Source: Candidatus Nomurabacteria bacterium (GTDB lineage: Bacteria; Patescibacteriota; Minisyncoccia; Phycocordibacterales; UBA9973). Taken from it: 64,000 nt of DNA. The notes under the pieces are model-generated. The model searched no databases, had not been told where the DNA came from, and worked only from the letters and a program-made list of their open reading frames with translations. The translations under genes and the position numbers were made by a program. The stretch's first letter is position 1. Each line of letters begins with the position of its first letter. The stretch spans positions 366,121 to 430,120 of the forward strand of contig CAWHSF010000003.1 in NCBI GenBank assembly GCA_963832025.1, in the 5' to 3' direction. Shown piece by piece: positions 1,634 to 62,037 of this stretch.

Positions 1634-3470
1634 ATGAATATTTCCTACAATTGGCTTAAATGGTACATTCCGGAAGCACCCGAGGCGGAAAAGCTGGTGG
1701 ATATTTTTAATTATCATCTCTGCGAAGTCGAGAGCTTAGAAAAGAAACCTGATGGAGATATTATTTTTGACTTGAAAATTTTACCAAACCGCGCGCATGA
1801 CTTGCTTTCTCATCAGGGCGTCGCTCGCGAGCTTGCTTCACTTTTAGATATAAAATTTGTTGACCCTACGCCAAAATATAAAATACCCGAATCAAAACCG
1901 ACCAGTTTAAAAATAGAAATAGAAAGTGATAAATGCCGTCGGTATATGGGACGGATTATTCGCAATGTAAAAGTCGGTCCGTCTCCGGAGTGGGTGGTGC
2001 AACATTTGGCTTCAATCGGGCAGAGAAGCATCAACAACATGGTGGATGCAGCAAATATTGTCATGTTTGATTGTGGTCAACCAACACATGTTTTTGACTT
2101 AGATAAAGTGAGTGAGAAATTAGTGGCTCGTATGGCGAAAGAAGGTGAAAAAATTACGACCTTAGACAATAAAGATTGTAGTCTGGAAGACTCTAATTTA
2201 GTCATTGCTGACGCTAAAAATGTTTTGGCCATCGCCGGAGTAAAAGGTGGAAAAATTGCCGAAGTAAACAATGACACAAAAAACATTATATTGGAGGTGG
2301 CAAATTTCGACCCAACTTCTGTCAGAAAAACTGCGCAAGCTTTAAACATTGTCACTGATGCGAAAAAACGTTTCGAAAATGACCTATCTCCAGAGTTGGG
2401 TTCTTACGCCATGCTTGAATTGTCCGCGCTAATTTTAGAAATGTGTGGAGAGGCTACTTTTGAAGATGTTGTGGATGCCCACCCGACCGAGTCATTCGGG
2501 CAGGTTTATCCACAAAAACAAGAAATAAAAAAGCTTTCTTTTTCAGCCGATAAAATATCAAAAATTTTAGGCGTTGATATTCCTATAGATAAAATAAAAG
2601 ATATTTTAGAGAGATATAATTTAGAATACGTAGAAGATAAAGGAGTTTTTGAAATTACGGTTCCACCGATGCGGCTAGATTTGGTCATTGAAGAAGACAT
2701 GGCGGAAGAAATCGGGAGGATTTTAGGATACGACAAAGTAGAAGGGAAGGTTCCGAAAATAAATTTTAAACCAAAAGTAAATGAGGCGTATGCAAAAATT
2801 GTTTTTGCCAGACATAAACTATTGAGCGATGGATATTCGGAAGTGATGAATACGAGTTTTAGCAATAAAGGGGAAGTGTCTGTTTTGGCATCTGCTTCCG
2901 ATAAAAATTTTCTAAGAGCAAATTTAACTGATGGGTTAAAAGAAAGTATCAAACTAAATCAAGCGAATGCTCCGCTGTTGGGGACGGAGCAAGTTAAAAT
3001 TTTTGAAATTGGAACGGTGTTTAAAAAAAGTGGGGAAGAGATGCATGTGGCTTATGGAGACAAGAAAGAGGTAAAAGAAATAACACTAGATGAATTTTGC
3101 TCTGGAATGCTGGAGCAGAATTCATTGGCATTACTCCACCCTGCGGGCGGAACCTTCCGCCAGCAGAATTCTGCTCCAGCATTCCAGATGTGGTCACTGT
3201 TTCCATTTATTGCGCGCGATATTGCGGTATGGGTTCCGGAAAATATAAAAAGTCGGAGATGTTGCTTTAGTCATCAAAAATAACATGGGAGATAAAGTTA
3301 TTCGAGGACCGGAACTTTTTGATGAGTTTAAAAAAGACGGAAAAATTTCTTATGCGTTTAGATTGGTATTTCAATCTTATGACAGAACTTTGACCGACCA
3401 AGAAGTGAACAATATTATGACAAAAATCACTGACCAGATAAAAGCAAAAAATGGCTGGCAGGTGAGATAG
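1634..3470 (+). CDS. pheT: Phenylalanine--tRNA ligase beta subunit, with no N-terminal tRNA-binding domain. Annotated as two ORFs because of a frame break.
   Basis: N-terminus NISYNWLKWYIP, PNRAHDLLSHQGVAREL, B3/4 and B5-like sequence, C-terminus ISYAFRLVFQSYDRTLTDQEV. ORFs 1634..3283 and 3285..3470 join across the A5 run at 3247-3251, giving ENIK-VGDVALVIKNNMGDKV. Confidence 0.9.
3102..3187. repeat. 86-bp hairpin element inside pheT (family A, opposite orientation)
   Basis: Perfect 22-bp terminal inverted repeats CTGGAATGCTGGAGCAGAATTC (3102-3123) and GAATTCTGCTCCAGCATTCCAG (3166-3187). Confidence 0.9.
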
Positions 3471-3562
3471 ATTTTTTGTCAGTTATCCCCAATATTTTGC
3501 TGAGTTTTCCTTTTCGGGAAAGGCTTATTTTGGTATAATATATAAAACAAACATAGAAAAAT

Positions 3563-4882
3563 ATGAAGCAAAAAAATAATTTTAAGATTTTCGTAAAAAA
3601 ATCACTAGTTTCTATTTTTTTTGTTCTCTTTTTTATTTTTACTTCCCATGTTTTTGCGACAACCGACCTCACAGCATTATCGCAACCCAATATTGCTAAT
3701 ACTCTAAAAACACAAAGCGAAGAAACATTACTAAATGCATTAAATAATGCGGATGTAATTTCTAAACTCACTGTTCCCACAACAACAACTATTCCTAAAA
3801 ATAATATTGTTCACCCCCTTTTTCAATTTAAGAACACCAATTTTTCTTTACTAGGGGGCAGTATTATTTCTATTTATAATAATTTTGTCCTACAGCCAAC
3901 TTCGGATGTGGAAACAGCAACACTTTTAATGATAGGGGATGGTCTAATCAGTATGGGCAATGTTACCGATTCTATTTACAGTAATTATGTTTCGTTCCCC
4001 AAATTGGCTTTTTCAACTCCAAAAATTAGTTTACTAAAAATAAATCCACCAAACGAAAACATGTTAGCAGCTGTGGTTGGCGCTGATGTAAATTATTATG
4101 TCACTGATTACAACGATTTTATCCTAAGACCTGTTTCTGGCTTGGAGACATCTATCTTACTTAAAATAGGGGAAGGATTAATCAATACCGGACACGCAAC
4201 GAGTTTTGTTTATAATAATGTTAAAAGCATAGATTCTAATTTTTACAACAACTATACTTCCGAACTCGCTGATATTTTATTTGCTCCCAAGATGGTGACA
4301 AAGACAACAGCTACTCCTACACCCGCAGTTGCTTCTGCTCAGAATACAAACACTTTAAATACCGCACCTACTGAGGCAGTTCAAACAGCTGGTATCATTA
4401 AAAATTGTGGAACAAGTATTGCTCCAAAATTTGGCAGTCCGGCTACTTATGAAAATAATTCCACACTGACTTGCTTGGCGCAAGCGGCGCTCACTTGTCA
4501 AAACGCGGAAGGTACTTTGACGAATAATTTTTTCCCGACTATCTTTGAAATCAGTAATACACAAAATTCCTGCGACTTTAAATTGTCTTATTCTACGGAC
4601 AGCACCCTTTCCGATATTACCGGCAAAAAACTAGCCGGAGAGTCTGTGTCATGTCCAGTTAGCATCGTGAAGGAGATAGACAACACTAACCCCACTTCTG
4701 TAAAATTTATTGAAGCCGATACTACAGACTTAAGTAAATATGGCAGTGATATATATTTTTATGGAACACTCGGTTTATTTGTAGAAAACGCCCTGGATCA
4801 AAATAAAATCCAATCTCTTGGTTGTAGCGGAGATTATATAAATACGATTATTTCCAGCTACAAAGTTGCTAAAATTCAATGA
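3563..4882 (+). CDS. Secreted protein with an internal duplication and a Cys-containing C-terminal domain
   Basis: Signal-peptide-like N-terminus (KKSLVSIFFVLFFIFTSHVFA). Duplicated ~90-aa module (ILQPTSDVETATLLMIGDGLISMGNVTDS versus ILRPVSGLETSILLKIGEGLINTGHATS). Eight Cys in the last 170 aa. Sits directly upstream of the giant surface gene. Confidence 0.6.
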   Translation: MKQKNNFKIFVKKSLVSIFFVLFFIFTSHVFATTDLTALSQPNIANTLKTQSEETLLNALNNADVISKLTVPTTTTIPKNNIVHPLFQFKNTNFSLLGGSIISIYNNFVLQPTSDVETATLLMIGDGLISMGNVTDSIYSNYVSFPKLAFSTPKISLLKINPPNENMLAAVVGADVNYYVTDYNDFILRPVSGLETSILLKIGEGLINTGHATSFVYNNVKSIDSNFYNNYTSELADILFAPKMVTKTTATPTPAVASAQNTNTLNTAPTEAVQTAGIIKNCGTSIAPKFGSPATYENNSTLTCLAQAALTCQNAEGTLTNNFFPTIFEISNTQNSCDFKLSYSTDSTLSDITGKKLAGESVSCPVSIVKEIDNTNPTSVKFIEADTTDLSKYGSDIYFYGTLGLFVENALDQNKIQSLGCSGDYINTIISSYKVAKIQ

Positions 4883-12681: not shown

Positions 12682-14778
12682 ATGGCAAAAGAGAAAGAAG
12701 ACAAAAAAGGTGGCGACAAAAGCCACCATTATGATGCCTCCGACATCTCGGTTTTGGAGGGTCTGGAGCCGGTTCGACGCCGTCCGGGCATGTATATCGG
12801 TACGACGGGGCCGGAAGGCTTACATCATTTGATTTGGGAAATTTTTGACAACTCTCGTGATGAAGCGATGGGTGGTTTTTGTGACGATATTGAAATTGTG
12901 CTTTTGCCAAACAACCGCATACGCGTCGCCGACAACGGCCGAGGCATGCCGGTAGACATTCATAAAAAAACCAAAGTCTCCGCGTTGGAGACAGTCATGA
13001 CGACACTGCACGCCGGAGGAAAATTCGGCGGTGACCATAGTGGCTACAAAGTTTCCGGAGGTTTGCACGGTGTCGGCGCTTCGGTAGTGAATGCGCTTTC
13101 TATTTTTTGCGAAGCGAGAGTTTGTCGAGACGGTGGTGAATACCGACAAGAATATTCGGAGGGCAAAAGAAAATCCGCGGTTAAAAAAATAGCGTCTTCA
13201 AAATTGCATGGCACGATTATCACTTTTGAACCGGATAAAAAAATTTTTGGTGATATTAAATTTGATTGGAATACCATTGTCGCTCATATTCGCCAACAAG
13301 CTTATTTGGTGAAAAAACTGAAAATTTTAATTATTGATGCGCGTGAATGGGACAATAATAAAGGTATGAATGAATCCGACGTTTTTTATTTTCGGGACTT
13401 GAGGCTGGAACTTCCGTCGGTCTCTTTTTATTTTGAAGGCGGATTGGTTTCTCTCGTAAAATATTTGAACAAATTTCAAAAGCCCGTCCAAAGCAATATT
13501 TTTTATGTTGAAAAAGAATTGGATGGTGTCGGTGTGGAGATAGCTCTGCAATATGTAGATGATATTTCCGAACGCATCATTCCTTTTGCAAACAATATCA
13601 ATACTCCCGAAGGTGGCACCCATGTGACTGGTTTTAAAACAGCACTCACTAGAACTTTGAATACTTACTGCAAGAAAAATGAAATGATGAAAGAGTCCGA
13701 AGGCGGATTTACCGGCGAAGACGTCTTGGAAGGTTTGACGGCGGTCATTTCTGTAAAATTGCGCGAGATACAATTTGAAGGTCAGACTAAAGCAAAACTC
13801 GGTAGTATGGAGGCGCAAGGCGCGGTGGCGACAGTTTTCGGCGAAGCCTTCGCAAATTTCTTGGAAGAAAATCCGGACGAAGCAAAAATAATCATCAACA
13901 AATCCATTCTTGCCTTAAAAGCCCGCAAAGCCGCCAAAGCCGCCAAAGATTCCATCCTCCGCAAGGGTGCTTTGGAAGGGATGACTCTTCCGGGGAAACT
14001 CGCAGACTGCCAGAGCAAGAATGCATCCGAATCCGAACTATTCATCGTGGAGGGAGATTCCGCAGGTGGTAGTGCCAAACAAGGACGCGACCGTCGCACT
14101 CAAGCTATTTTGCCACTTGCGTGGAAAAATTTTGAATGTTGAACGCGCGCGCATTGACAAAATGCTCGCTTCCAAAGAAGTGAAATCGCTTGTCATTGCC
14201 ATGGGTACATCCATAGGAGATACCTTTGATATAGACAAAATGCGTTACCATAAAATAATCATCGCGACCGATGCCGACGTGGACGGTTCCCACATCAGCA
14301 CATTGCTTTTGACTCTTTTCTATCGATATTTTCGCCAAGTGATTGACGCGGGATATATTTACATCGCGCAGCCTCCACTATATAAAATAAAAAAAGGCAA
14401 AGAAATTTTTTATGCTTACACTGATGAAGAAAAAGTAAAAATTATCGGCAAAAATGCGGATGTGAGTGACATTGAGGAGGTGGAAGATGAAGAACCCCTA
14501 CCCGACCTCCCCCTTGTTAAGGGGGAGGAGAAGAGGAGGAGGGTCTAGAGAAAAAATCCACTAAAATTCACATTCAGCGATATAAAGGTCTCGGAGAAAT
14601 GAATCCAGAAGAACTTTGGGAGACGACCATGGATCCTGCACATCGCGTGCTCAAGCAAGTGATGATTAATGACGCCGAAGAAGCCAACAAAATTTTTGAT
14701 ATTCTCATGGGCTCCGAAGTTCCTCCGCGTAAATCTTTCATTCAATCCAATGCGAAACTAGCGGAGATTGATATCTAA
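12682..14778 (+). CDS. gyrB: DNA gyrase subunit B. The reading requires two frame changes.
   Basis: Motifs [70 protein letters not shown] and [19 protein letters not shown]. The frame changes near 14117 (extra base between CTT and CGT) and returns in the G5 run at 14521-14525, inside a palindromic insert. Confidence 0.9.
14506..14528. repeat. Family B palindrome inside gyrB
   Basis: cctccccctt-gtt-aagggggagg. The 10-bp stems are identical to the smc copy. Confidence 0.85.
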
Positions 14779-19245: not shown

Positions 19246-21417
19246 ATGCGTCTCAAGACCCTTCAATTAAATGGTTTTAAATCATTTGCCCAAAAGACAG
19301 TTTTAGAATTCGAAAGCCCTATTGTTTCCATCGTCGGGCCCAATGGATCCGGAAAATCCAATATTGTGGAAGCTTTTCGTTTTGTCTTAGGTGAACAATC
19401 CATGAAATCCATGCGCGGAAAGGGTGGTTCAGACCTTGTGTTTAAGGGTTCAAAAAAACTGTCAGCCGGTTCTAAAGCTTCTGTCTCTATTTATTTTAAT
19501 AACACCGATAAGGTGTTTAAATTATCCAACGACGGAGGAGATGAAATAAATCTAAATTACGACACCATTTCTATTTCTCGCGAAGTTTACTCCGACGGAC
19601 TTAACAAATATATTTTAAATGGTTCGGAGGTTAGACTGAAAGATATTCACAATTTGCTTGCCTCGGTGAACATCGGTTCTTCCGGACACCATATCATCTC
19701 TCAAGGCGAGGCAGACAGAATTTTAAATGCAAACACGAAAGACAGGCGTGAGATGGTTGAGGATGCGCTTGGATTGAAAATCTATCAATATAAAATTAAA
19801 GAATCAGAAAGAAAACTGGAAAAGACAAATGAGAACATGAAAGAAGTTGTTCTTCAGCGTCGAGAAAATGTTCCGCATTTGAATTTTTTGAAAAAACAGG
19901 TAGAGAAATTTGAAAAGACGAAAGAAATGCAATCGGAGCTAGCAGTTCTCTATAAAGAATATTTAAAAAAGGAAAGTGTTTACTTAGAACAAGAAAAAGA
20001 AGCGCTCGGAGCAGAGAGAAAAAAAATTTCAACTGAGTTAAAGAGCGTGGATGAGAAAATTTCTATTATTGAGGACAATGACCCCCTCCGTCATTCTGAC
20101 ACCTCCCCCTTATTAAGGGGGAGGATTGGTGGGAGTTCTTCTTTAGAAGAACTCAGACTGCTCGAGCAGAAAATAAATTCTTTACGAGCAAGTAGAGGAG
20201 AACTTGAACGTAAACTCGGACGCATTGAAGGAATCTTGGAATCTAGAGCAAATAAAGTTCAAATTTCTGGTAGGTGTCCGCTTTGTGGTAGTGAAATTAA
20301 AGAAAATGCCGAGCAGATAGAAAAAAAACATAATGAAGAAAAAGAACTTGAAGAATTAAAAGTCTCACAAGCAAATGCGTTATCGGAAATAAAAAAGATT
20401 GAAGCGGAAGAAAAAGAGGGAATCAGTTCGGCGGAAAAATTGAAACAGGACATAAACAAGGAGATGGAAGCTTTGCGTGATTTGGAACGCGAGAAATTTG
20501 CTTTCAAAGTGCGTCACCAGGAGCTAACGTCTGCCTTAGAACTCGTAGTTATTAAGGAAGGGAATTTACATAGTCGCACAGAGGCTTTTGAACAAGAAAT
20601 AAAAGAAGGCGCAGTCTTGATCGGACAAGAAATTTATTCTTATAAAACTTATGAAGTCACAGAAGATGTTTTGGGTCATATTCAAGAAGAGCAGAGAAAA
20701 AAAATTGAACGTATCAAGATAAAATTGGAAGATACCGGTTTGGGGAATGGAGCCGAGCTTATGAAAGAATTTCAAGAAGTCTCCGAACGAGATCAGTTTT
20801 TGGCAAAAGAGATGGAAGATTTGGAGAAAAGCATCGAATCATTGAAAAAATTGATTGCAGACTTGAAAGAAAAAATTGACATAGAATTTAAAGAAGGCGT
20901 GAAAAAAATAAATGTGGAGTTCCAGGAATTTTTCTCGCTGATGTTTGGCGGAGGGCACGGTTCTCTTTCTATTATTGAAATTAAAAAGAGAAAAGTGAAT
21001 GAAGTGGATGAGGATGGGGAGGAGATAACTGAGATGGAAGATGAAGAAGACGAAATGCCGGAAAAAGGAATAGAAATAAATGTTTCTTTGCCGCATAAAA
21101 AAGTGAAAGAACTGAATGCTTTTTCGGGCGGAGAACGCTCGCTCACATCTATCGCGCTTCTGTTCGCCATGTCGCAAGTGAATCCGCCACCGTTTCTGGT
21201 GCTGGATGAGACAGATGCCGCGCTCGATGAATCAAATTCCCGTAAATACGGCGATATGCTTGAAAAACTTTCCGAACATTCTCAGCTTGTCGTTGTTACC
21301 CACAATCGCGAGACGATGTCTCGCGCCGGGATACTTTACGGCATCACTATCGGTTCCGACGAAGCTTCCAAACTTCTTTCTGTAAAATTCGAAGAAGCCA
21401 CGCAGATTGCAAAATAG
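19246..21417 (+). CDS. smc: SMC-family ATPase, short (723 aa) and hingeless, with a central CPLC motif
   Basis: N-terminal head: GFKSFAQKTVLEFESPIVSIVGPNGSGKSNIVEAFRFVLGEQS. C-terminal head: FSGGERSLTSIALLFAM...FLVLDETDAALD...VVTHNRETM. About 375 aa of Lys/Glu-rich coiled-coil-like sequence with GRCPLCGSE at aa 342-350 and no hinge-like Gly-rich domain. Confidence 0.8.
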   Translation: MRLKTLQLNGFKSFAQKTVLEFESPIVSIVGPNGSGKSNIVEAFRFVLGEQSMKSMRGKGGSDLVFKGSKKLSAGSKASVSIYFNNTDKVFKLSNDGGDEINLNYDTISISREVYSDGLNKYILNGSEVRLKDIHNLLASVNIGSSGHHIISQGEADRILNANTKDRREMVEDALGLKIYQYKIKESERKLEKTNENMKEVVLQRRENVPHLNFLKKQVEKFEKTKEMQSELAVLYKEYLKKESVYLEQEKEALGAERKKISTELKSVDEKISIIEDNDPLRHSDTSPLLRGRIGGSSSLEELRLLEQKINSLRASRGELERKLGRIEGILESRANKVQISGRCPLCGSEIKENAEQIEKKHNEEKELEELKVSQANALSEIKKIEAEEKEGISSAEKLKQDINKEMEALRDLEREKFAFKVRHQELTSALELVVIKEGNLHSRTEAFEQEIKEGAVLIGQEIYSYKTYEVTEDVLGHIQEEQRKKIERIKIKLEDTGLGNGAELMKEFQEVSERDQFLAKEMEDLEKSIESLKKLIADLKEKIDIEFKEGVKKINVEFQEFFSLMFGGGHGSLSIIEIKKRKVNEVDEDGEEITEMEDEEDEMPEKGIEINVSLPHKKVKELNAFSGGERSLTSIALLFAMSQVNPPPFLVLDETDAALDESNSRKYGDMLEKLSEHSQLVVVTHNRETMSRAGILYGITIGSDEASKLLSVKFEEATQIAK
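20102..20124. repeat. Family B palindrome inside smc
   Basis: cctccccctt-att-aagggggagg, with GC-rich flanks. Translated as [11 protein letters not shown]. Confidence 0.85.
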
Positions 21418-24003: not shown

Positions 24004-25998
24004 TTATACTAAAATATAATCTATTGTTTTTCTTTCTAAATCAACTGCCTTCACTTTTATTTTTATTTTATCTCCCAAGCGATAGTGTTTTTTCTTTTTC
24101 TGCCCGATTAGTTCCAATTTTTTTTCATTGAAAACATAAAAATCGTCTTGCAGATCTCGCATTCGCACCAACCCTTCGCATTTTGTGTCTATTTCTTCCA
24201 CATACATGCCCCACTCTGTCATTCCGCTAATTACTCCTTCAAAAATTTTTCCTAAACGCTTACTCATGTATTCCACTTGTTTATATTTTATGGAAGCGCG
24301 TTCCGCATCCGAAGCGCGTTTTTCTTGCTCGGAAGCTATTCTACTCATCTTTTCAAATTCAATTAACTTTCCGACACTATTTTTTTTCTTAGCTAAATGA
24401 TCGGCCAACAACCTATGAATCATAATGTCCGGATATCGGCGAATCGGAGAAGTGAAATGCGTGTAGTGTTTAAATGCGAGTCCGTAATGTCCGATATTTT
24501 TCGTGGAATAAATGGCTTTGGCCATAGACCTTATCACTGCACGTTGCACAGTGTCTCTGACTGTCTCATTTGCACTTTTTCCTTCCAAACTTTCCAAGAG
24601 TTTATTTATTTCATGCGTTGGGATAATTCCATTTTGCAAAGAAATTTTATATCCCAAACTTTTCAGGAAAAATGCCAAGTCAGCCATTTTTTCTTTAGAG
24701 GGCAAGTCATGTACTCTATATATTGAGACGTTGTCATTTTCCGCCTCTCCGGCGGATCGCCGATGAGGCGATTTGGGAGACAAAACTTCGGCTACTTTTT
24801 TATTCGCCAAAAGCATGAATTCTTCAATTAGTTTATTTGAATCGCCGCGTTCTTTTTTAATTACTTTTATCGGCACACCTTTTTCATCTAAGACAAATTT
24901 TACTTCTTCTTGGTCGAGCGATATCGCGCCGGAGGCAAACCTTTGCTTGGTTAATTTTTTTGCCAAATTATTTAAAATGGAAAGTTCTTTATGGAGAGGA
25001 GAGCCTACTTTATGAATGGAAATTTCTGCTTCTTCGTAAGTAAATCTTTTTTGTGAATGAATTATCGTGCGTCCAAACCATTCGCTTTGCACTTGCGCAT
25101 TCTTATCAATTACAAAAACCGCGCTCATCGTCAGCCGGTCTTTATGGGGAACCAAACTACATAAATCATTGGAAAGAATTTCCGGCAACATCGGTATCGT
25201 TCTGTCCACCAAATAAACCGAAGTTCCTCTTTCACGTGCTTCTATATCTAGCGCACTGCCCACTTTGACATAATGTGACACATCGGCAATATGAACTCCG
25301 ATTTCATAGACCTCACCCCCTAGCCCCCTCTCCTTGTCAAGGAGAGGGGGAAGAATTTTGAAAGAAATTGCATCATCAAAATCTTTCGCGTCCGAGGGGT
25401 CAATCGTGAAAGTCAAAATTTTTCTAAAATCACGGCGTCCCGCATAATCACTTTCTTTGATTCCGGCTTGTTTTATTTTTCTCGCTTCTTCTTCCACTTT
25501 ATGCGGTAGCTCCGAATCAAAACCTTTTTCCATGGCGATGGAATGCATTTCCGTGTTATTATCGCCGGGACGTCCTAAAATTTTTACCACTTTTCCGAGC
25601 GGAGCCTTTTTGGCGTCCAACCACGAAATTATTTCCACAAATACTTTTTGCCCAAGCTTGGCACCATTTAATGATTCTTTTGGAATTAAAATATCGGTAT
25701 AAATTTTCGTATCATCGGGTCGCAAAAAAGTCATTCCATTTTCTGTCTCTAAAACTCCGGAAAAACCGATTTTTGCGCGAGAAATTATTTTTGTGACTTC
25801 ACCATTTGTGCGATTTTTATTTTTTGGATGAAGAATTATCTCCACCGTGTCTCCATGCAGGGCAGTATTTAAATGCCTCCCATCAATTTCTATATCTTCT
25901 CCATTTTTAGCGATTTTGTCGTCCAAAAGCTTTACGTAGCCTGTGCCCTTTGAGGAGATGGAAATGGTGCCGTGTAACTTATTTGTAAATCCTTTCAT
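24004..25998 (-). CDS. rnr: Ribonuclease R. The ATG at 25998 is preferred over the upstream TTG at 26034.
   Basis: Cold-shock-like N-terminus, RNB motifs (TIDPSDAKDFDDAIS, VHIADVSHYV, RGTSVYLVDRTIPMLP, HFTSPIRRYPD) and a C-terminal S1 domain (FEGVISGMTEWGMYVE). Confidence 0.9.
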   Translation of the reverse strand: MKGFTNKLHGTISISSKGTGYVKLLDDKIAKNGEDIEIDGRHLNTALHGDTVEIILHPKNKNRTNGEVTKIISRAKIGFSGVLETENGMTFLRPDDTKIYTDILIPKESLNGAKLGQKVFVEIISWLDAKKAPLGKVVKILGRPGDNNTEMHSIAMEKGFDSELPHKVEEEARKIKQAGIKESDYAGRRDFRKILTFTIDPSDAKDFDDAISFKILPPLLDKERGLGGEVYEIGVHIADVSHYVKVGSALDIEARERGTSVYLVDRTIPMLPEILSNDLCSLVPHKDRLTMSAVFVIDKNAQVQSEWFGRTIIHSQKRFTYEEAEISIHKVGSPLHKELSILNNLAKKLTKQRFASGAISLDQEEVKFVLDEKGVPIKVIKKERGDSNKLIEEFMLLANKKVAEVLSPKSPHRRSAGEAENDNVSIYRVHDLPSKEKMADLAFFLKSLGYKISLQNGIIPTHEINKLLESLEGKSANETVRDTVQRAVIRSMAKAIYSTKNIGHYGLAFKHYTHFTSPIRRYPDIMIHRLLADHLAKKKNSVGKLIEFEKMSRIASEQEKRASDAERASIKYKQVEYMSKRLGKIFEGVISGMTEWGMYVEEIDTKCEGLVRMRDLQDDFYVFNEKKLELIGQKKKKHYRLGDKIKIKVKAVDLERKTIDYILV
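25324..25350. repeat. Family B-like palindrome inside rnr
   Basis: ccccctctcctt-gtc-aaggagaggggg (12-bp stems). Translated on the minus strand as PPLLDKERGLGG, between the DDAIS and VHIADVSHY motifs. Confidence 0.8.
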
Positions 25999-37273: not shown

Positions 37274-39016
37274 ATGAACTCTCCCGTTCAAAAAATTAAG
37301 GAGAGACTGACAATTGAAGAATTAGTCTCTTCTTATATAAAGCTCGACAGAGCGGGCGCAAATCTAAAAGCTCGATGTCCTTTTCATAATGAAAAAACAC
37401 CTTCCTTTTTTATTTCGCCTGACCGGGGAACTTATTATTGTTTTGGTTGCGGAGCGTCCGGAGACATATTTACTTTTGTCGAAGAGTTTGAAGGGCTTGA
37501 TTTTAAAGGAGCCTTAAAAATGTTGGCGGATAGAGCCGGAGTACAACTAGAACATTTTAACCCAAAAGACAAGGAGAATAAGAGTGAAAAAGAAAAGCTT
37601 TATGAGGTAATGGAAGAAGCGACTTTATTTTTTGAAAAAAATTTAAATGTAAACAAAGAAGCTTTGGAATATATTAAATCTCGTGGGGTAAATGAGAAAA
37701 GCATTGCTGATTTTAGAGTCGGATACATCGCACCAGACTGGCGATTGCTTTATACTCATTTGAAAAACAAAGGTTTTTCTGATGGAGAAATAGAAAAAGC
37801 TGGACTCGCTAAAAGAGTGGATAAAGGCCTGCCTGCCGGCAGGCAGGGAATGTATGACAGATTTCGCGGAAGAATCATGTTTCCAATTGCAGACTCTAGT
37901 GGGCGCATAATTGCTTTTTCAGGCCGGCTTCTTGAAGCCGGCCTGTCCGCCGAAGCTTTAGCGAAGGCGGGCGCTAAGTATCTTAATAGTCCGGAAACAC
38001 CAATTTTCAGTAAAAATGCCGTACTTTATGGCATAGACAAAGCCAAAGATTCCATTCGCAAAAACAATTTTTCTATTTTAGTGGAAGGACAAATGGATTT
38101 GATTATGTCCCACCAAGCAGGCTATAAAAACACCGTTGCGACATCCGGCACCGCTTTGTCGGATTCAACCGTATCTAAAGAACGGGTTGTTTCTAATTTG
38201 GGATTGATTCGCAGACTGTCTCCAAATATTGTTCTGGCTTTTGACGCCGATAAAGCAGGAGCCAATGCGACAATCAGGGCAGGCAACATAGCTTTGTCTT
38301 TAGGTATGGATGTAAAGGTTGCAAAGATGGGGGATGGAGTTGACCCAGCGGATTTAATATCGAAAGAAGGAGTAGACGCATGGAAGCAAGTCGTTCGTGA
38401 AGCTAAACATATTATAGAATTTCTCCTAAATAAAGTTTTAAATACTTCTCGGAATGATACTCGCAAAACAGGCAGGGAAATAAAAGAAAAAATATTGCCG
38501 TTTGTAAACGCCCTGGAGAGTTCAATCGAGAAAACATATTTCATAAAAAAAATCAGTGATTTGTCAGGAATTCCGGAACCTGCGCTCCAAGACGATTTGC
38601 GAAAAATTGAACAGGAATTAAAATACGAAAAAGAAGAAATAAAAGAAGCAGATAATGCTCAAAATAAATTATACAGAAAAGATTATATAGAACGTAAACT
38701 TTTAGGCATTGCTTTTTGGAAAAAAGATTCTGAGATTTTGGAAAAATTGGCTCCCATTGTAAAAAAATATGAAAATATAAAAGAAGATTTAATTTTTGAA
38801 GCGGAAGTTTTTTACGCAAATGATGAAAATTTGGAAAAAAGCGTTAATGAAATGTTTATAAACTTGGAAGAAGAAGATATTAATGCAGAATTGAATAAAA
38901 AAATGACAGAGTTGAAGCAAAATACAGAGGAGGAAAAAGGGAAGTCGATTCTGAAAGAGATAAATGAATTAAATAAAAAGAAAGAAGAAATTAAAAACGG
39001 TCGCTTTAAAAAATAA
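37274..39016 (+). CDS. dnaG: DNA primase, with three short palindromic in-frame insertions and a Lys/Glu-rich tail
   Basis: Zinc finger [30 protein letters not shown], plus [25 protein letters not shown] and TOPRIM motifs EGQMDLI and [10 protein letters not shown]. Confidence 0.9.
37828..37847. repeat. Family C 20-bp perfect palindrome inside dnaG
   Basis: CCTGCCTGCCGGCAGGCAGG, translated as LPAGRQG. Identical to 60124-60143. Confidence 0.9.
37922..37971. repeat. Two adjacent GC-rich hairpins inside dnaG
   Basis: ggccggctt-cttg-aagccggcc, then tccgccgaagctttagcgaaggcggg (family D). Translated as [17 protein letters not shown], just before the conserved KYLNSPET. Confidence 0.7.
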
Positions 39017-59687: not shown

Positions 59688-59702
59688 AAGCAGAATTCCC
59701 AG

Positions 59703-59773
59703 TGGACCTACGGAGAGTCGGACTCCGACCTCGTCCATGCCATGGACGCGTTCTACCGCTGAACTATAGGCCC
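59703..59773 (-). tRNA. tRNA-Ala (anticodon GGC)
   Basis: The reverse complement gggcctatagttcagcggtagaacgcgtccatGGCatggacg... has the G3:U70 pair and A73. Confidence 0.85.
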
Positions 59774-59858
59774 GTCTGTAGAATAATAGCCGAAATATAT
59801 AAAAATACAACGGCAATTTACATTTTAATCAAAATAATATAAAATGCCTTTGTTGTCT

Positions 59859-59931
59859 GGGCCTTTAGCTCATCTGGTAGAGCGCCTCATTTGCAATGAG
59901 GAGGTAAGGAGTTCGAGTCTCCTAAGGTCCA
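59859..59931 (+). tRNA. tRNA-Ala (anticodon UGC)
   Basis: gggcctttagctcatctggtagagcgcctcattTGCaatgagg...aggagttcgagtctcctaaggtcca, with the G3:U70 pair and A73. Confidence 0.9.
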
Positions 59932-60103
59932 CAATGATCCGCGAGAACAGCTGGGAGCTGCTTGAGCGAATCATCATTGTGTGACATGAGAGACGAGAAA
60001 GGCGGAGGCCGACGGGCCGAGCCGGGGTAGCGAAATTTTTCAGTAGAAAAATATTTGTGACCGAGTCTCCTAATGTCCACAGTTGTTCTTTGGAAAATTA
60101 AAT

Positions 60104-60157
60104 TCGGGAGTAGCTCAGCGGTACCTGCCTGCCGGCAGGCAGGGGGCGGTCGCCTGT
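60104..60157 (+). pseudogene. Orphan 5-prime half of tRNA-Asn (acceptor to anticodon positions 34-35) carrying a 20-bp palindrome in the D arm
   Basis: tcgggagtagctcagcggta[cctgcctgccggcaggcagg]gggcggtcgcctgt matches the intact tRNA-Asn 5-prime half at 60415-60448, apart from the insert and one substitution. Confidence 0.75.
60124..60143. repeat. Family C 20-bp perfect palindrome inside the tRNA-Asn 5-prime fragment
   Basis: CCTGCCTGCCGGCAGGCAGG, inserted relative to the intact tRNA-Asn D arm. Confidence 0.9.
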
Positions 60158-60171
60158 GATATGATTTAGAA

Positions 60172-60435
60172 ATGGAGGAAAATTTCGTTTACGCCATAAA
60201 AAGCATAAAGGATGGCAGAATTTATGTTGGAATGAGTCGTAACCCGTAAAAGAGATTGTTGGAACACAACAGCGGAAAAGTTTTTTCTACGAAAGGTTTT
60301 CGTCCTTGGATTCTGATATTTTTTGAAAATACTGGCGCAAGTAGAATTTATGCCAGAATTAGGGAAAAATATTGGAAATCAGGGTGTGGTAAGGAAAAAT
60401 TGAAAAAAGAATATTCGGGAGTAGCTCAGCGGTAG
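60172..60435 (+). pseudogene. Small GIY-YIG (COG2827/YhbQ-like) nuclease gene with an in-frame TAA at 60247-60249. Its 3-prime end runs into tRNA-Asn.
   Basis: Translation: MEENFVYAIKSIKDGRIYVGMSRNP*KRLLEHNSGK...GFRPWILIFFE...ARIREKYWKSG. This is the GIY...YVG...R...EHN pattern of the GIY-YIG fold. Confidence 0.7.
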
Positions 60436-60486
60436 AGCGGTCGCCTGTTAAGCGATTGGTCGTAGGTTCGATCCCTACCTCCCGAG
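60415..60486 (+). tRNA. tRNA-Asn (anticodon GUU)
   Basis: tcgggagtagctcagcggtagagcggtcgcctGTTaagcgattggtcgtaggttcgatccctacctcccgag folds as a canonical cloverleaf. Confidence 0.9.
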
Positions 60487-60676
60487 CATTACGTGGACTT
60501 TCAGCGTAGAGTTCTTCTATTTGTCCTCGTATTTTTACCTATTTTGAGAGGTTCTAACCGTTTATTTTCAATCACTACATCTTTTAAGGGAATTAGCGTT
60601 TTTTCCATATCAATCACTACGATTTTGTCTTTTAACGACGAGGTGCGAACCTAATTGGATGAATACCTCTTTTTTC

Positions 60677-62037
60677 TCAAAGGTTCGCCTTTTTCAAACT
60701 TGGCTCTTGCATCTCTGGCAAAGTCAGCAAACCTCGTCTGCTTTTTTCATAAAGCAGGTCAACATCCTTGCCCGTCTTGTTAAAGATATTTTCCCAGCGT
60801 TGTTTTTCTGCTGTTAGTGGTTCTTTACGCATTTTAAATTCCTCCTCGGTTAATTCTTGATTGGCTCGCATATCAATCAAGCCCGACAATTTTTTCAAGC
60901 ATTCTTTATATGCCTTATTTTGCGTATCAAGGATGGATTCGGTTGTTTGAGCTTGTTTGGCGTTTTCTTTTCTAAACCACTTCAAAGCAAAATCGTGCAA
61001 ATCTGGCGGGAATGGTTAGTGAATCAATTTCTGTTTTAATTTGTTTTTCCAATTCTTTTTGCTCAATACATTTCTGGGTGCAGTTTGGATTTATGCGTTT
61101 CGTGCAATGGTAATAAATATATCTGTGTATGTTGCCGTTCTTGTTGCCTTTTGATTTTTTCTTCTGCTGTAATGCTTGCTCCGCACTCTCCGCACTCCAT
61201 AAGCCCCGTAAAGGCGAAAATATGCGTCTTGGGGCGAGGTTTGCCTTTCTGCCGAGATATTACTTGTATCTTGTCGTATTCTTCTGCAGTCATTAAAGGT
61301 TTATATGTCCCTTTATACCAAATACCACTTCCTTTCGGATATTCGAAAATCCCGTAATAAGCGGTATTAGTGAAAATATAGTAAATCGTATTTCTGCTCA
61401 TCTTTTTGCCATTGGGCATTTTAAAGCCCCATTCTTCGTTGGCTATATTTCTCTGATTTTTAACGGAGTATAAAGACCCGTAAGCATCATATCAACCATT
61501 TTACGAACCAAATCAAATCTTTCTGGGTCTGGGTAAATTTGCTTTTTACCTCGTTCGTCATATTTATTATTTTTATATCCAGTCGGGGCGGGTGCAGGAT
61601 ACATTCCTTTTTCAGCTTTTGTTTTTAATCCTCGTTTTACATCTTCGCCCTTGTTATCATTTTCCAGTTTCGCTTGATTACAAAACAGAGCAAGCATAAA
61701 TTTATCGTTGGGGATATTGCGCTATAAATTTGGCTTGGAGTTCTGACTTCAACCAGTTTCCCTAAATCCATTAAATACACAATCTTGCCTGTATCTATTG
61801 GATTTCGTGAAATTCTGCTTGGCGCTCCAAACCAAAAGCCCATTGGCATAGCCATTGTCAATTTTTTCAACCAGTTCGGCAAATTTAGGTCTGTTGAGTT
61901 TTTTTGCCGAGTGTGATTCTTCAATAATTTCAATACTATTCATGCTTTTCTCGTTTCGCAACAACTTAAAGTTCTTTTCTTGCGATTCAATAGATCAAAA
62001 CTTGCCTATCTTCTTGTTCGGAAGTATTTACGACAGT
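60677..62037 (-). pseudogene. Large serine recombinase split over at least five frame-shifted pieces
   Basis: Pieces read, in order: TVVNTSEQEDRQ...SIESQEKEL; SAKKLNRPKFAELVEKIDNGYANGLLVW; RISRNPIDTGKIVYLMD; recombinase domain GYKNNKY...RFDLVRKMVDMML...YYIFTNTAYYGIFEY; Zn ribbon GLMECGECGASITAEE; coiled-coil tail. Confidence 0.75.

Follow-up and report, generated by a model that had tools for sequence, protein, structure and literature searches.

How does a bacterium come to carry the 5' part of one of its transfer RNA (tRNA) genes twice, with a palindrome set into the first copy and a nuclease gene lying between that copy and the intact second one? The question is raised by a 64,000-nucleotide stretch of a Candidatus Nomurabacteria bacterium genome (GenBank assembly GCA_963832025.1, contig CAWHSF010000003.1, positions 366,121 to 430,120), hereafter called the window, in which an open reading frame (ORF) of the GIY-YIG nuclease family runs into a gene for tRNA-Asn. 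We propose, with a probability that we put at roughly 0.55, that this locus holds, in inactivated form, a widespread module that is part of tRNA transcription units and is composed of a minimal GIY-YIG nuclease and its cognate palindrome, which we call PAL. The parts of the locus are the following:

60104 to 60123, plus strand: upstream copy of nucleotides 1-20 of tRNA-Asn(GTT), identical to the real tRNA, the homology beginning at tRNA position +1.
60124 to 60143, plus strand: PAL, a perfect 20-bp palindrome, CCTGCCTGCCGGCAGGCAGG, directly after the D-loop GGTA.
60144 to 60157, plus strand: upstream copy of tRNA-Asn nucleotides 21-34, GGGCGGTCGCCTGT, with one mismatch; its last bases are the GT of the anticodon.
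60157 to 60165, plus strand: TGaTATGAT, resembling an extended -10 box, with 6 nt between it and the start codon.
60172 to 60435, plus strand: GIY-YIG nuclease pseudogene of 87 codons, with a single in-frame TAA at 60247-60249 and a terminal TAG at 60433-60435.
60415 to 60486, plus strand: intact tRNA-Asn(GTT), called by ARAGORN and by Rfam (70.6 bits, gathering score 29).

The original prediction, made from the letters of this DNA, was correct in every statement that it made about the sequence (partial copy, ORF, TAA codon and overlap with the tRNA), and its view that a GIY-YIG gene sits between direct repeats of the tRNA 5' part, with a functional tRNA downstream, was borne out. Indeed, nothing but the 264-bp ORF lies between the tRNA repeats, the two copies standing about 290 bp apart, and the last seven codons of the ORF (SGVAQR and the stop) are nucleotides 1-21 of tRNA-Asn, the TAG stop being tRNA nucleotides 19-21. 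With the TAA codon masked, the ORF matches the GIY-YIG profile PF01541 with E=3.2e-12 and 47 bits (cut-off 22.6), which settles the check by hidden Markov model that had been suggested for it. The gene had also been called dead, and rightly so, given that 82 of 84 related ORFs are intact and that the closest homologues have E, G, N or D at the position of the in-frame TAA. The window copy is hence a nuclease gene killed by one stop codon, next to a PAL and a tRNA that are both intact. In shuffles of the window, an exact 20-mer palindrome has an expected count of 0.00, whereas the window itself holds it twice.

Such an arrangement had been thought uncommon, an opinion that the survey of other genomes overturned. 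A protein search returned 418 relatives, the closest of which are intact proteins of 86-87 aa, 76-89% identical to the window protein and nearly all ending in ...SGVAQR, so that the overlap of the ORF with the tRNA 5' end is conserved. A scan of species-representative genomes confirmed 492 loci, 80 of which were fetched. At a larger scale, a profile search of 1.84 billion cluster representatives yielded 9,588 matches with E<=1e-3; at the stricter E<=1e-10, 1,999 remained, about 2,000 clusters at 50% identity. The hosts of the loci are Bacteroidota, many lineages of Patescibacteria, WOR-3, Stahlbacteria and some bins labelled Gammaproteobacteria; they include isolate RefSeq genomes of Sphingobacterium, Pedobacter, Echinicola, Litoribacter and Mangrovibacterium. 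The worry that the duplication might be an assembly artefact can thus be set aside, since dozens of independent assemblies, isolates among them, share this layout.

When the downstream tRNA is aligned to the DNA upstream of the ORF, a canonical order emerges: nucleotides 1-21 of the local tRNA, PAL, tRNA nucleotides 22 to X (X being about 33-58), the ORF and then the complete tRNA. An intact tRNA on the same strand lies at most 140 nt downstream of 65 of the 84 ORFs, and the full canonical arrangement, with PAL upstream and such a tRNA downstream, is seen for 59/84. The stop codon of the ORF falls inside the tRNA in 49 of the 65 loci, 32 of which use for it the universally conserved T8-A9-G10 of the tRNA. 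At least 12 tRNA species carry this layout, among them Arg-CCT/ACG/CCG/TCG/TCT, Asn, Phe, Lys-TTT/CTT, Leu and Met, the usual target being tRNA-Arg(CCT) in Bacteroidota and tRNA-Asn in Patescibacteria. This architecture of the module is a direct observation.

The anticodon loop, at which an insertion had been postulated, is no general point of entry, since the upstream copy reaches tRNA position 47-58 in other members of the family. In the Patescibacteria-type subfamily, the tRNA homology gives way to a TATAAT-like box at about 33-36; such boxes precede the ATG by 4-12 nt in 14 of 31 loci of the Patescibacteria type versus 2 of 54 of the Bacteroidota type. Because the box recurs in this way, the break at position 34 in the window is best read as a -10-like element that has replaced tRNA sequence, and not as a general insertion point. 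The TGaTATGAT box at 60157-60165 would then be a possible promoter of the ORF's own.

The anticodon site has an occupant in one relative. In L001, the closest relative, whose GIY-YIG gene is intact and about 90% identical, the downstream tRNA-Asn is split by a group I intron of about 246 nt (RF00028, 55.8 bits, L001:3270-3515), which follows the anticodon bases GT, the point up to which the upstream partial copies match, and is separate from the ORF. We regard it as a separate occupant of the same tRNA. A group I intron-encoded endonuclease was also considered for the window and rejected: the Rfam scan found no Intron_gpI at E<=1 between 58000 and 64000 of the window, and near the locus tRNAs alone were matched.

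The palindrome had been taken for something that the orphan tRNA half had picked up in its decay, and here the comparison leads to the opposite conclusion. PAL occurs at most 130 nt upstream of 68 of the 84 ORFs, at the same D-loop position and at a set distance from the start codon (median 25 nt, interquartile range 22-28), hence it is a conserved component of the module. It is found on both sides of the ORF in tandem arrays and a few other loci only. Its place is after the D-loop GGTA or GGATA (TA^GA), on tRNAs for Asn, Arg, Phe, Lys, Leu and others; its flanks match the neighbouring tRNA, whatever the species of the latter, while PAL itself is constant. It is near-identical across phyla, whereas the protein is only about 60-70% identical, and it is the most conserved non-coding part of the unit. 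Among full-length (20-nt) upstream copies, 39 of 58 are exact; the others differ by single transitions or have a 19-nt form, and no compensatory changes are seen. Some variants are lineage-specific, such as the 19-nt form and GGTAGG forms. Exact conservation without compensation fits the recognition of a sequence rather than of a structure alone. In tRNAs that contain ATA^GAA twice, PAL can stand at the second site (L035, L043, L006), and the target therefore looks like a short DNA motif, RTA^GAR. A duplication of the tRNA leader is seen in marginal excess (4.4 versus 3.7 of 10), driven by the tandem arrays, and the homology starts effectively at +1.

The protein itself is a single minimal domain of about 79-87 aa, most related ORFs encoding 77-102 aa, with 26 invariant columns that include R16, I17, Y18, V19, G20, R28, H32, N33 and E65. 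By profile comparison, its best relatives of solved structure are the UPF0213 protein 1YWL (E=2.6e-6) and SLX1 7CQ2 (E=9e-5), together with 1ZG2. The AlphaFold2 model (pLDDT 87) predicts a beta-beta-alpha-beta-alpha-alpha fold, for which the top Foldseek matches are 1ZG2 and Slx1 (6SEH/7CQ2/4XLG), at probability 1.00 and a TM of about 0.65. Judged from profile and model, it is a stand-alone Slx1-like/UPF0213 GIY-YIG domain in the sense of Dunin-Horkawicz et al. (PMC1564403). The term homing-type nuclease does not suit it in the classic sense, as no DNA-binding domain of the I-TevI/Seg kind is present in the protein. The NCBIfam scan gave no family above its cut-off, with a sub-threshold 31-residue match to TIGR01453 (22 bits versus 56), and tblastn found no match in plasmids and weak, generic GIY-YIG matches only in phages. 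A prokaryotic Slx1-like GIY-YIG domain has been described in fusion with a TrmH-type methyltransferase, a modifier of G18 in the tRNA D-loop (PMC1564403). PAL stands two to three nt after G18-G19, which may be a coincidence or may hint at a connection with tRNA or its D-loop.

Departures from the canonical order are informative. A mirror arrangement is found in seven to nine loci, where an intact tRNA and its terminator come before the ORF and a PAL-bearing tRNA copy follows. On the side of PAL away from the ORF, the DNA is a perfect copy of the local tRNA, with 21/21 matches in most canonical loci and 43/43 to 53/53 in mirror loci, several of which have duplicated the terminator too. The segment on the ORF side is decayed or foreign; in L073, it reads ggaagtagctcagctggata against the local ggtcccatagctcaacaggata, 21 nt that come from a different tRNA. 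This asymmetry fits a PAL that marks the edge of DNA travelling with the ORF. Tandem arrays occur in L005, L010 and L032, PAL is nested in PAL in L023 and L071, and other hairpins occupy the same D-loop site in L048, L028 and L009. From their sequences, these variant loci appear to show a dynamic system.

Some full-length tRNAs carry PAL in the D-loop on their own (L048:3461-3552 and 3629-3720, L034:3243-3336, L006:379-471, L062:3352-3473). ARAGORN calls these solo tRNAs as 'tRNA-???' of 93-95 nt, and the one of L062 adds a PAL-stem hairpin in the T-loop. In Sunxiuqinia (L040 and L041, contigs 1 and 2), a segment of more than 3.3 kb is present twice at 99.3% identity, each copy with the module and tRNA-Arg(ACG); the two copies diverge exactly at the tRNA 3' end.

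PAL also exists outside the module, and the window holds one such copy:

37828 to 37847, plus strand: second exact PAL, in frame in dnaG (primase), encoding LPAGRQG in a loop after VDKG.

Solved primases are gapped exactly at LPAGRQG and 13 homologues of 57-77% identity have no PAL insert, and the dnaG copy appears from these alignments to be an insertion specific to the genome of the window. The same gene has a second GC-rich hairpin stretch at 37920-37975, GGCCGGCTTCTTGAAGCCGGCC followed by CCGCCGAAGCTTTAGCGAAGGCGG, which encodes 13 residues; close homologues are about 7 residues shorter there. Other perfect GC-rich hairpins lie in long ORFs at 14506-14528, 20102-20124, 25324-25350 and 21307-21325 of this 39% GC window, including two copies of CCTCCCCCTT[G/A]TTAAGGGGGAGG and one of CCCCCTCTCCTTGTCAAGGAGAGGGGG. 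In all, the window has 7 such perfect hairpins, whereas shuffles contain about 0.2. In L011, L028 and L038, pseudo-tRNAs are interrupted by similar hairpins, of the form CCTCCC...GGGAGG.

Unbiased scans for exact matches to PAL gave 35 stretches of viral and at least 120 of metagenomic origin, with about 160 distinct sites between them. A few of these sites are in other tRNA loops, and some are at the tip of a longer hairpin. The sole protein family that recurs within 2 kb of PAL sites is GIY-YIG (8 of 155 loci), and about 7 extra PAL copies were seen in 436 kb around the related genes. Direct repeats of at least 7 nt flank 6% of solo PAL copies, against 0.3% in the control. As the signature of a staggered-cut transposition this was not retained: the enrichment is real, yet most PAL copies are without flanking repeats. 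Among the viral sites, PAL lies in the variable-loop region of a tRNA-Met(CAT) in two phage-like contigs (L082:8616 and L105:2284), and a 29.5-kb viral contig (L101, L108, L109) has PAL six times, with GTAG before it as in classical REP elements.

No description of a tRNA-embedded nuclease with PAL was found in the open literature, in a search that included the exact PAL sequence, and the module is apparently undescribed so far. The closest known system appears to be that of the Ssn nucleases, single-domain GIY-YIG proteins of about 94 aa (cd10448), which bind NTS/SRM hairpin repeats that flank their own genes and exist in hundreds of copies, and which cleave single-stranded DNA just upstream of the hairpin; the authors note an architecture like that of insertion sequences and propose a domestication of the family (Chenal et al., Nat Commun 2025, PMC11893778). 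Both systems have a small, single-domain GIY-YIG protein (below 150 aa, about 80-94 aa), whose gene adjoins a hairpin repeat of 20-50 nt that is also dispersed elsewhere and is conserved in sequence, not in structure alone. On the contrary, PAL is a perfect palindrome without the HGTC tag and is usually one-sided, within a duplicated tRNA 5' segment, and the ORF is fused to the tRNA. The hosts of the module are mainly Bacteroidota and Patescibacteria whereas those of Ssn are Pseudomonadati, and tRNA is never mentioned in the Ssn paper (PMC11893778). The logic of a nuclease paired with its hairpin is common to both systems.

Other systems share single traits with the module. The UPF0213/Slx1-like proteins (EF2693, 1YWL, and BH0048, 1ZG2; PMC1564403) are its best matches in sequence and fold and likewise have no auxiliary domain, but no link of theirs to a hairpin repeat or to tRNA genes has been described. 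REP/RAYT elements (REPtrons) and IS200/IS605 similarly have a short dispersed palindrome with a copy adjoining the gene of the presumed enzyme, and the nesting of PAL in PAL recalls palindrome-targeting elements. The module differs from them by a hydrolytic GIY-YIG domain in the place of an HUH/Y1 transposase and by a master copy within a tRNA gene; PAL in the module is moreover flanked by TA/GA and has no GTAG tag, unlike REP. GIY-YIG homing endonucleases in tRNA regions, such as T4 SegB (PMC2330249), are also selfish nuclease genes among tRNA genes, and in tRNA-regenerating integrative elements a partial tRNA duplicate likewise flanks the inserted DNA while a functional tRNA is kept. Unlike both, the module has no DNA-binding domain, no integrase in the unit and a conserved palindrome at the junction, and what it duplicates is the 5' end of the tRNA, over 21-58 nt only.

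How might the module work? PAL would bound, on one side, the DNA that moves together with the nuclease gene. Recombination or repair, and no classical transposase, would bring the unit into a tRNA gene, at the TA^GA of its D-loop. The tRNA segment adjoining the ORF would restore a full tRNA, such that the host keeps its essential gene, and the displaced 5' part, now with PAL, would stay behind as a non-functional copy. The ORF would be transcribed with the tRNA, from the tRNA promoter or from its own short -10 box. By analogy with Ssn, the protein may bind PAL as a single-stranded hairpin and cut beside it, and cutting at PAL could drive the spread of the module and of solo PAL copies such as that of dnaG. 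Both this mechanism of mobility and the interaction of nuclease and PAL are what we infer. A bolder version, which we offer tentatively, is that PAL and the GIY-YIG gene form an unrecognised class of autonomous hairpin-based mobile element, which would home into the D-loop TA^GA, rebuild the tRNA, borrow its transcription and its T8-A9-G10 stop and seed 20-nt solo hairpins across phyla, even in frame in dnaG; it would be a GIY-YIG counterpart of REP/RAYT without a transposase of known type.

Several points weigh against a mobile nuclease-PAL pair. GIY-YIG enzymes hydrolyse DNA and cannot transfer strands, therefore host repair must be invoked. A simple homing model sits uneasily with the TA^GA site that the regenerated tRNA keeps. 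The decay of the ORF-side segment could equally reflect an adaptation for a promoter, for a start codon or for a stop codon. A comparison of related loci in pairs recovered no empty site and no empty/filled pair of one tRNA locus, only the 3.3-kb duplication of Sunxiuqinia, and a query with the glutamine synthetase of the window gave as sole match a 4-kb contig that ends before the tRNAs; the ends of the unit and its present mobility are hence inferred only. About 95% of the sampled PAL sites lie away from tRNA and GIY-YIG genes, and some high-GC matches may be unrelated terminator hairpins. The G.T wobble variants of PAL show no clear strand bias (9 on the sense versus 5 on the antisense strand). 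Finally, the published SRM pattern, used as the regular expression HGTCWYN(0-2)YYVSBRHN(0-5)WNVSBRGN(0-2)RNCYNB, which matches its NTS positive control, has 0 matches in PAL contexts, 0 in the window and 2 in the 436 kb of related loci; PAL thus does not qualify as an SRM.

The surroundings of the locus contain a further tRNA and a broken recombinase:

59817 to 59845, plus strand: promoter-like site TTTACA-17-TAAAAT ahead of tRNA-Ala(TGC), a match to the consensus.
59859 to 59932, plus strand: tRNA-Ala(TGC), the upstream neighbour (ARAGORN, Rfam).
60677 to 61964, minus strand: fragmented large serine recombinase, at least 4 ORFs in several frames with Resolvase, Recombinase and Zn-ribbon pieces.

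Transcription through the module probably begins at the promoter-like site, and since the stretch from 59700 to 60700 showed no terminator-like site, a single transcript may cover the tRNAs and the module. The last 20 nt of tRNA-Ala(TGC) (59914-59933) are repeated with 19/20 matches at 60062-60081, 148 nt downstream, and the insert 59934-60061 with the repeat folds into two hairpins (z = -2.7); this may represent either an att remnant or a miniature element inserted at the 3' end of tRNA-Ala. The recombinase fragments are apparently the remnant of a separate element integrated next to tRNA-Asn. Five Roizmanbacteria contigs (L237, L239, L240, L242, L244) have an intact recombinase of 501 aa at the same position, and other strains carry different islands. 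Across contigs that encode an identical Roizmanbacteria homologue of the nuclease, the upstream side is constant and the islands downstream of tRNA-Asn differ, thus tRNA-Asn is also an ordinary integration hotspot, separate from the module. An integrase-mediated tRNA island was rejected as the origin of the module, the serine recombinase lying outside the repeats and beyond the tRNA. In L002, the Nomurabacteria relative, a LOOT RNA (RF03000, 83 bits) lies at 3464-3585, about 150 nt downstream of tRNA-Asn.

The most serious competitor of a module that moves, although we consider it rather unlikely, is a domesticated and vertically inherited Ssn/UPF0213-like gene, long co-transcribed with certain tRNAs, for which PAL would be an operator, an mRNA 5' hairpin or an autoregulatory recognition site; the partial tRNA copy would then be the fossil of one ancient rearrangement per lineage and nothing would be mobile now. 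The fixed spacing between PAL and ATG and the high conservation of the ORF would be natural under such an account, as would the correlation of the target tRNA with the host phylum and the upstream context of P0071, constant in about 10 strains where only the DNA downstream of the tRNA varies, and domestication is what the Ssn authors proposed for their own family (PMC11893778). It fits poorly with the use of at least 12 tRNA species and with nearest-neighbour ORFs that sit on different tRNAs in 27 of 80 cases. The tandem arrays, the mirror loci, the chimeric L073 and the solo PAL-bearing tRNAs indicate ongoing rearrangement; the distal 21 nt have stayed perfect, unlike a fossil, and PAL is near-identical across phyla next to a protein that is much more divergent.

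Returning to the original prediction as a whole, the duplication, the preserved tRNA and the dead ORF stood, and the anticodon-loop insertion, the palindrome as a product of decay and the rarity did not. Its picture of a single homing-type cassette, inserted in the anticodon loop of tRNA-Asn with a replacement 5' half and now decaying, the stop codon and palindrome being secondary, is quite improbable: the homology does end after GT in the window, L001 and L002, the intron of L001 occupies exactly that site in the downstream tRNA and the window ORF carries a stop codon, but the palindrome holds its D-loop site across the relatives, the homology runs further in other members, the -10-like box after position 34 is common to Patescibacteria-type loci, and neither a DNA-binding domain of the classic homing endonucleases nor, in the window, a group I intron was detected. 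Mobile-element integration commonly leaves partial tRNA copies, and one could see in the upstream copy an att repeat of the serine-recombinase element, with the GIY-YIG gene as cargo, the more so as recombinase debris lies just downstream and an intact recombinase stands at the same place in related contigs. This is highly improbable, since the tRNA stands between the module and the recombinase, the repeated segment comes from the tRNA 5' part and lies immediately upstream at the short distance given above, no 3' repeat of tRNA-Asn exists elsewhere in the window, P0071 strains vary in their downstream islands and not on the GIY-YIG side, and most loci have the module without a recombinase. That the whole is an artefact of assembly or sequencing, a collapsed or expanded repeat or an adapter-like palindrome, might be suggested by an identical 20-mer in very different taxa and seemingly random contexts; it is hardly credible given isolate RefSeq genomes and assemblies from many laboratories, lineage-specific PAL variants such as the 19-nt and GGTAGG forms, a PAL position fixed relative to tRNA and ORF and a PAL in frame in dnaG.

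The module links small, hairpin-reading GIY-YIG nucleases, a recent enzyme class, to tRNA genes through a precise architecture that crosses phyla, and which annotation pipelines now record piecemeal, as a 'GIY-YIG family protein' here and stray tRNA fragments there. It accounts for a class of tRNA pseudogenes and for the odd 93-nt 'tRNAs' of Bacteroidota and Patescibacteria, and it indicates a source of the GC-rich hairpin micro-insertions in coding genes of AT-rich, streamlined genomes. With PAL, a defined pair of enzyme and site is available for testing, which may serve as a tool for single-stranded DNA. Should its mobility be confirmed, the module would show that a selfish gene can settle in an essential gene by a new route that involves no intron.

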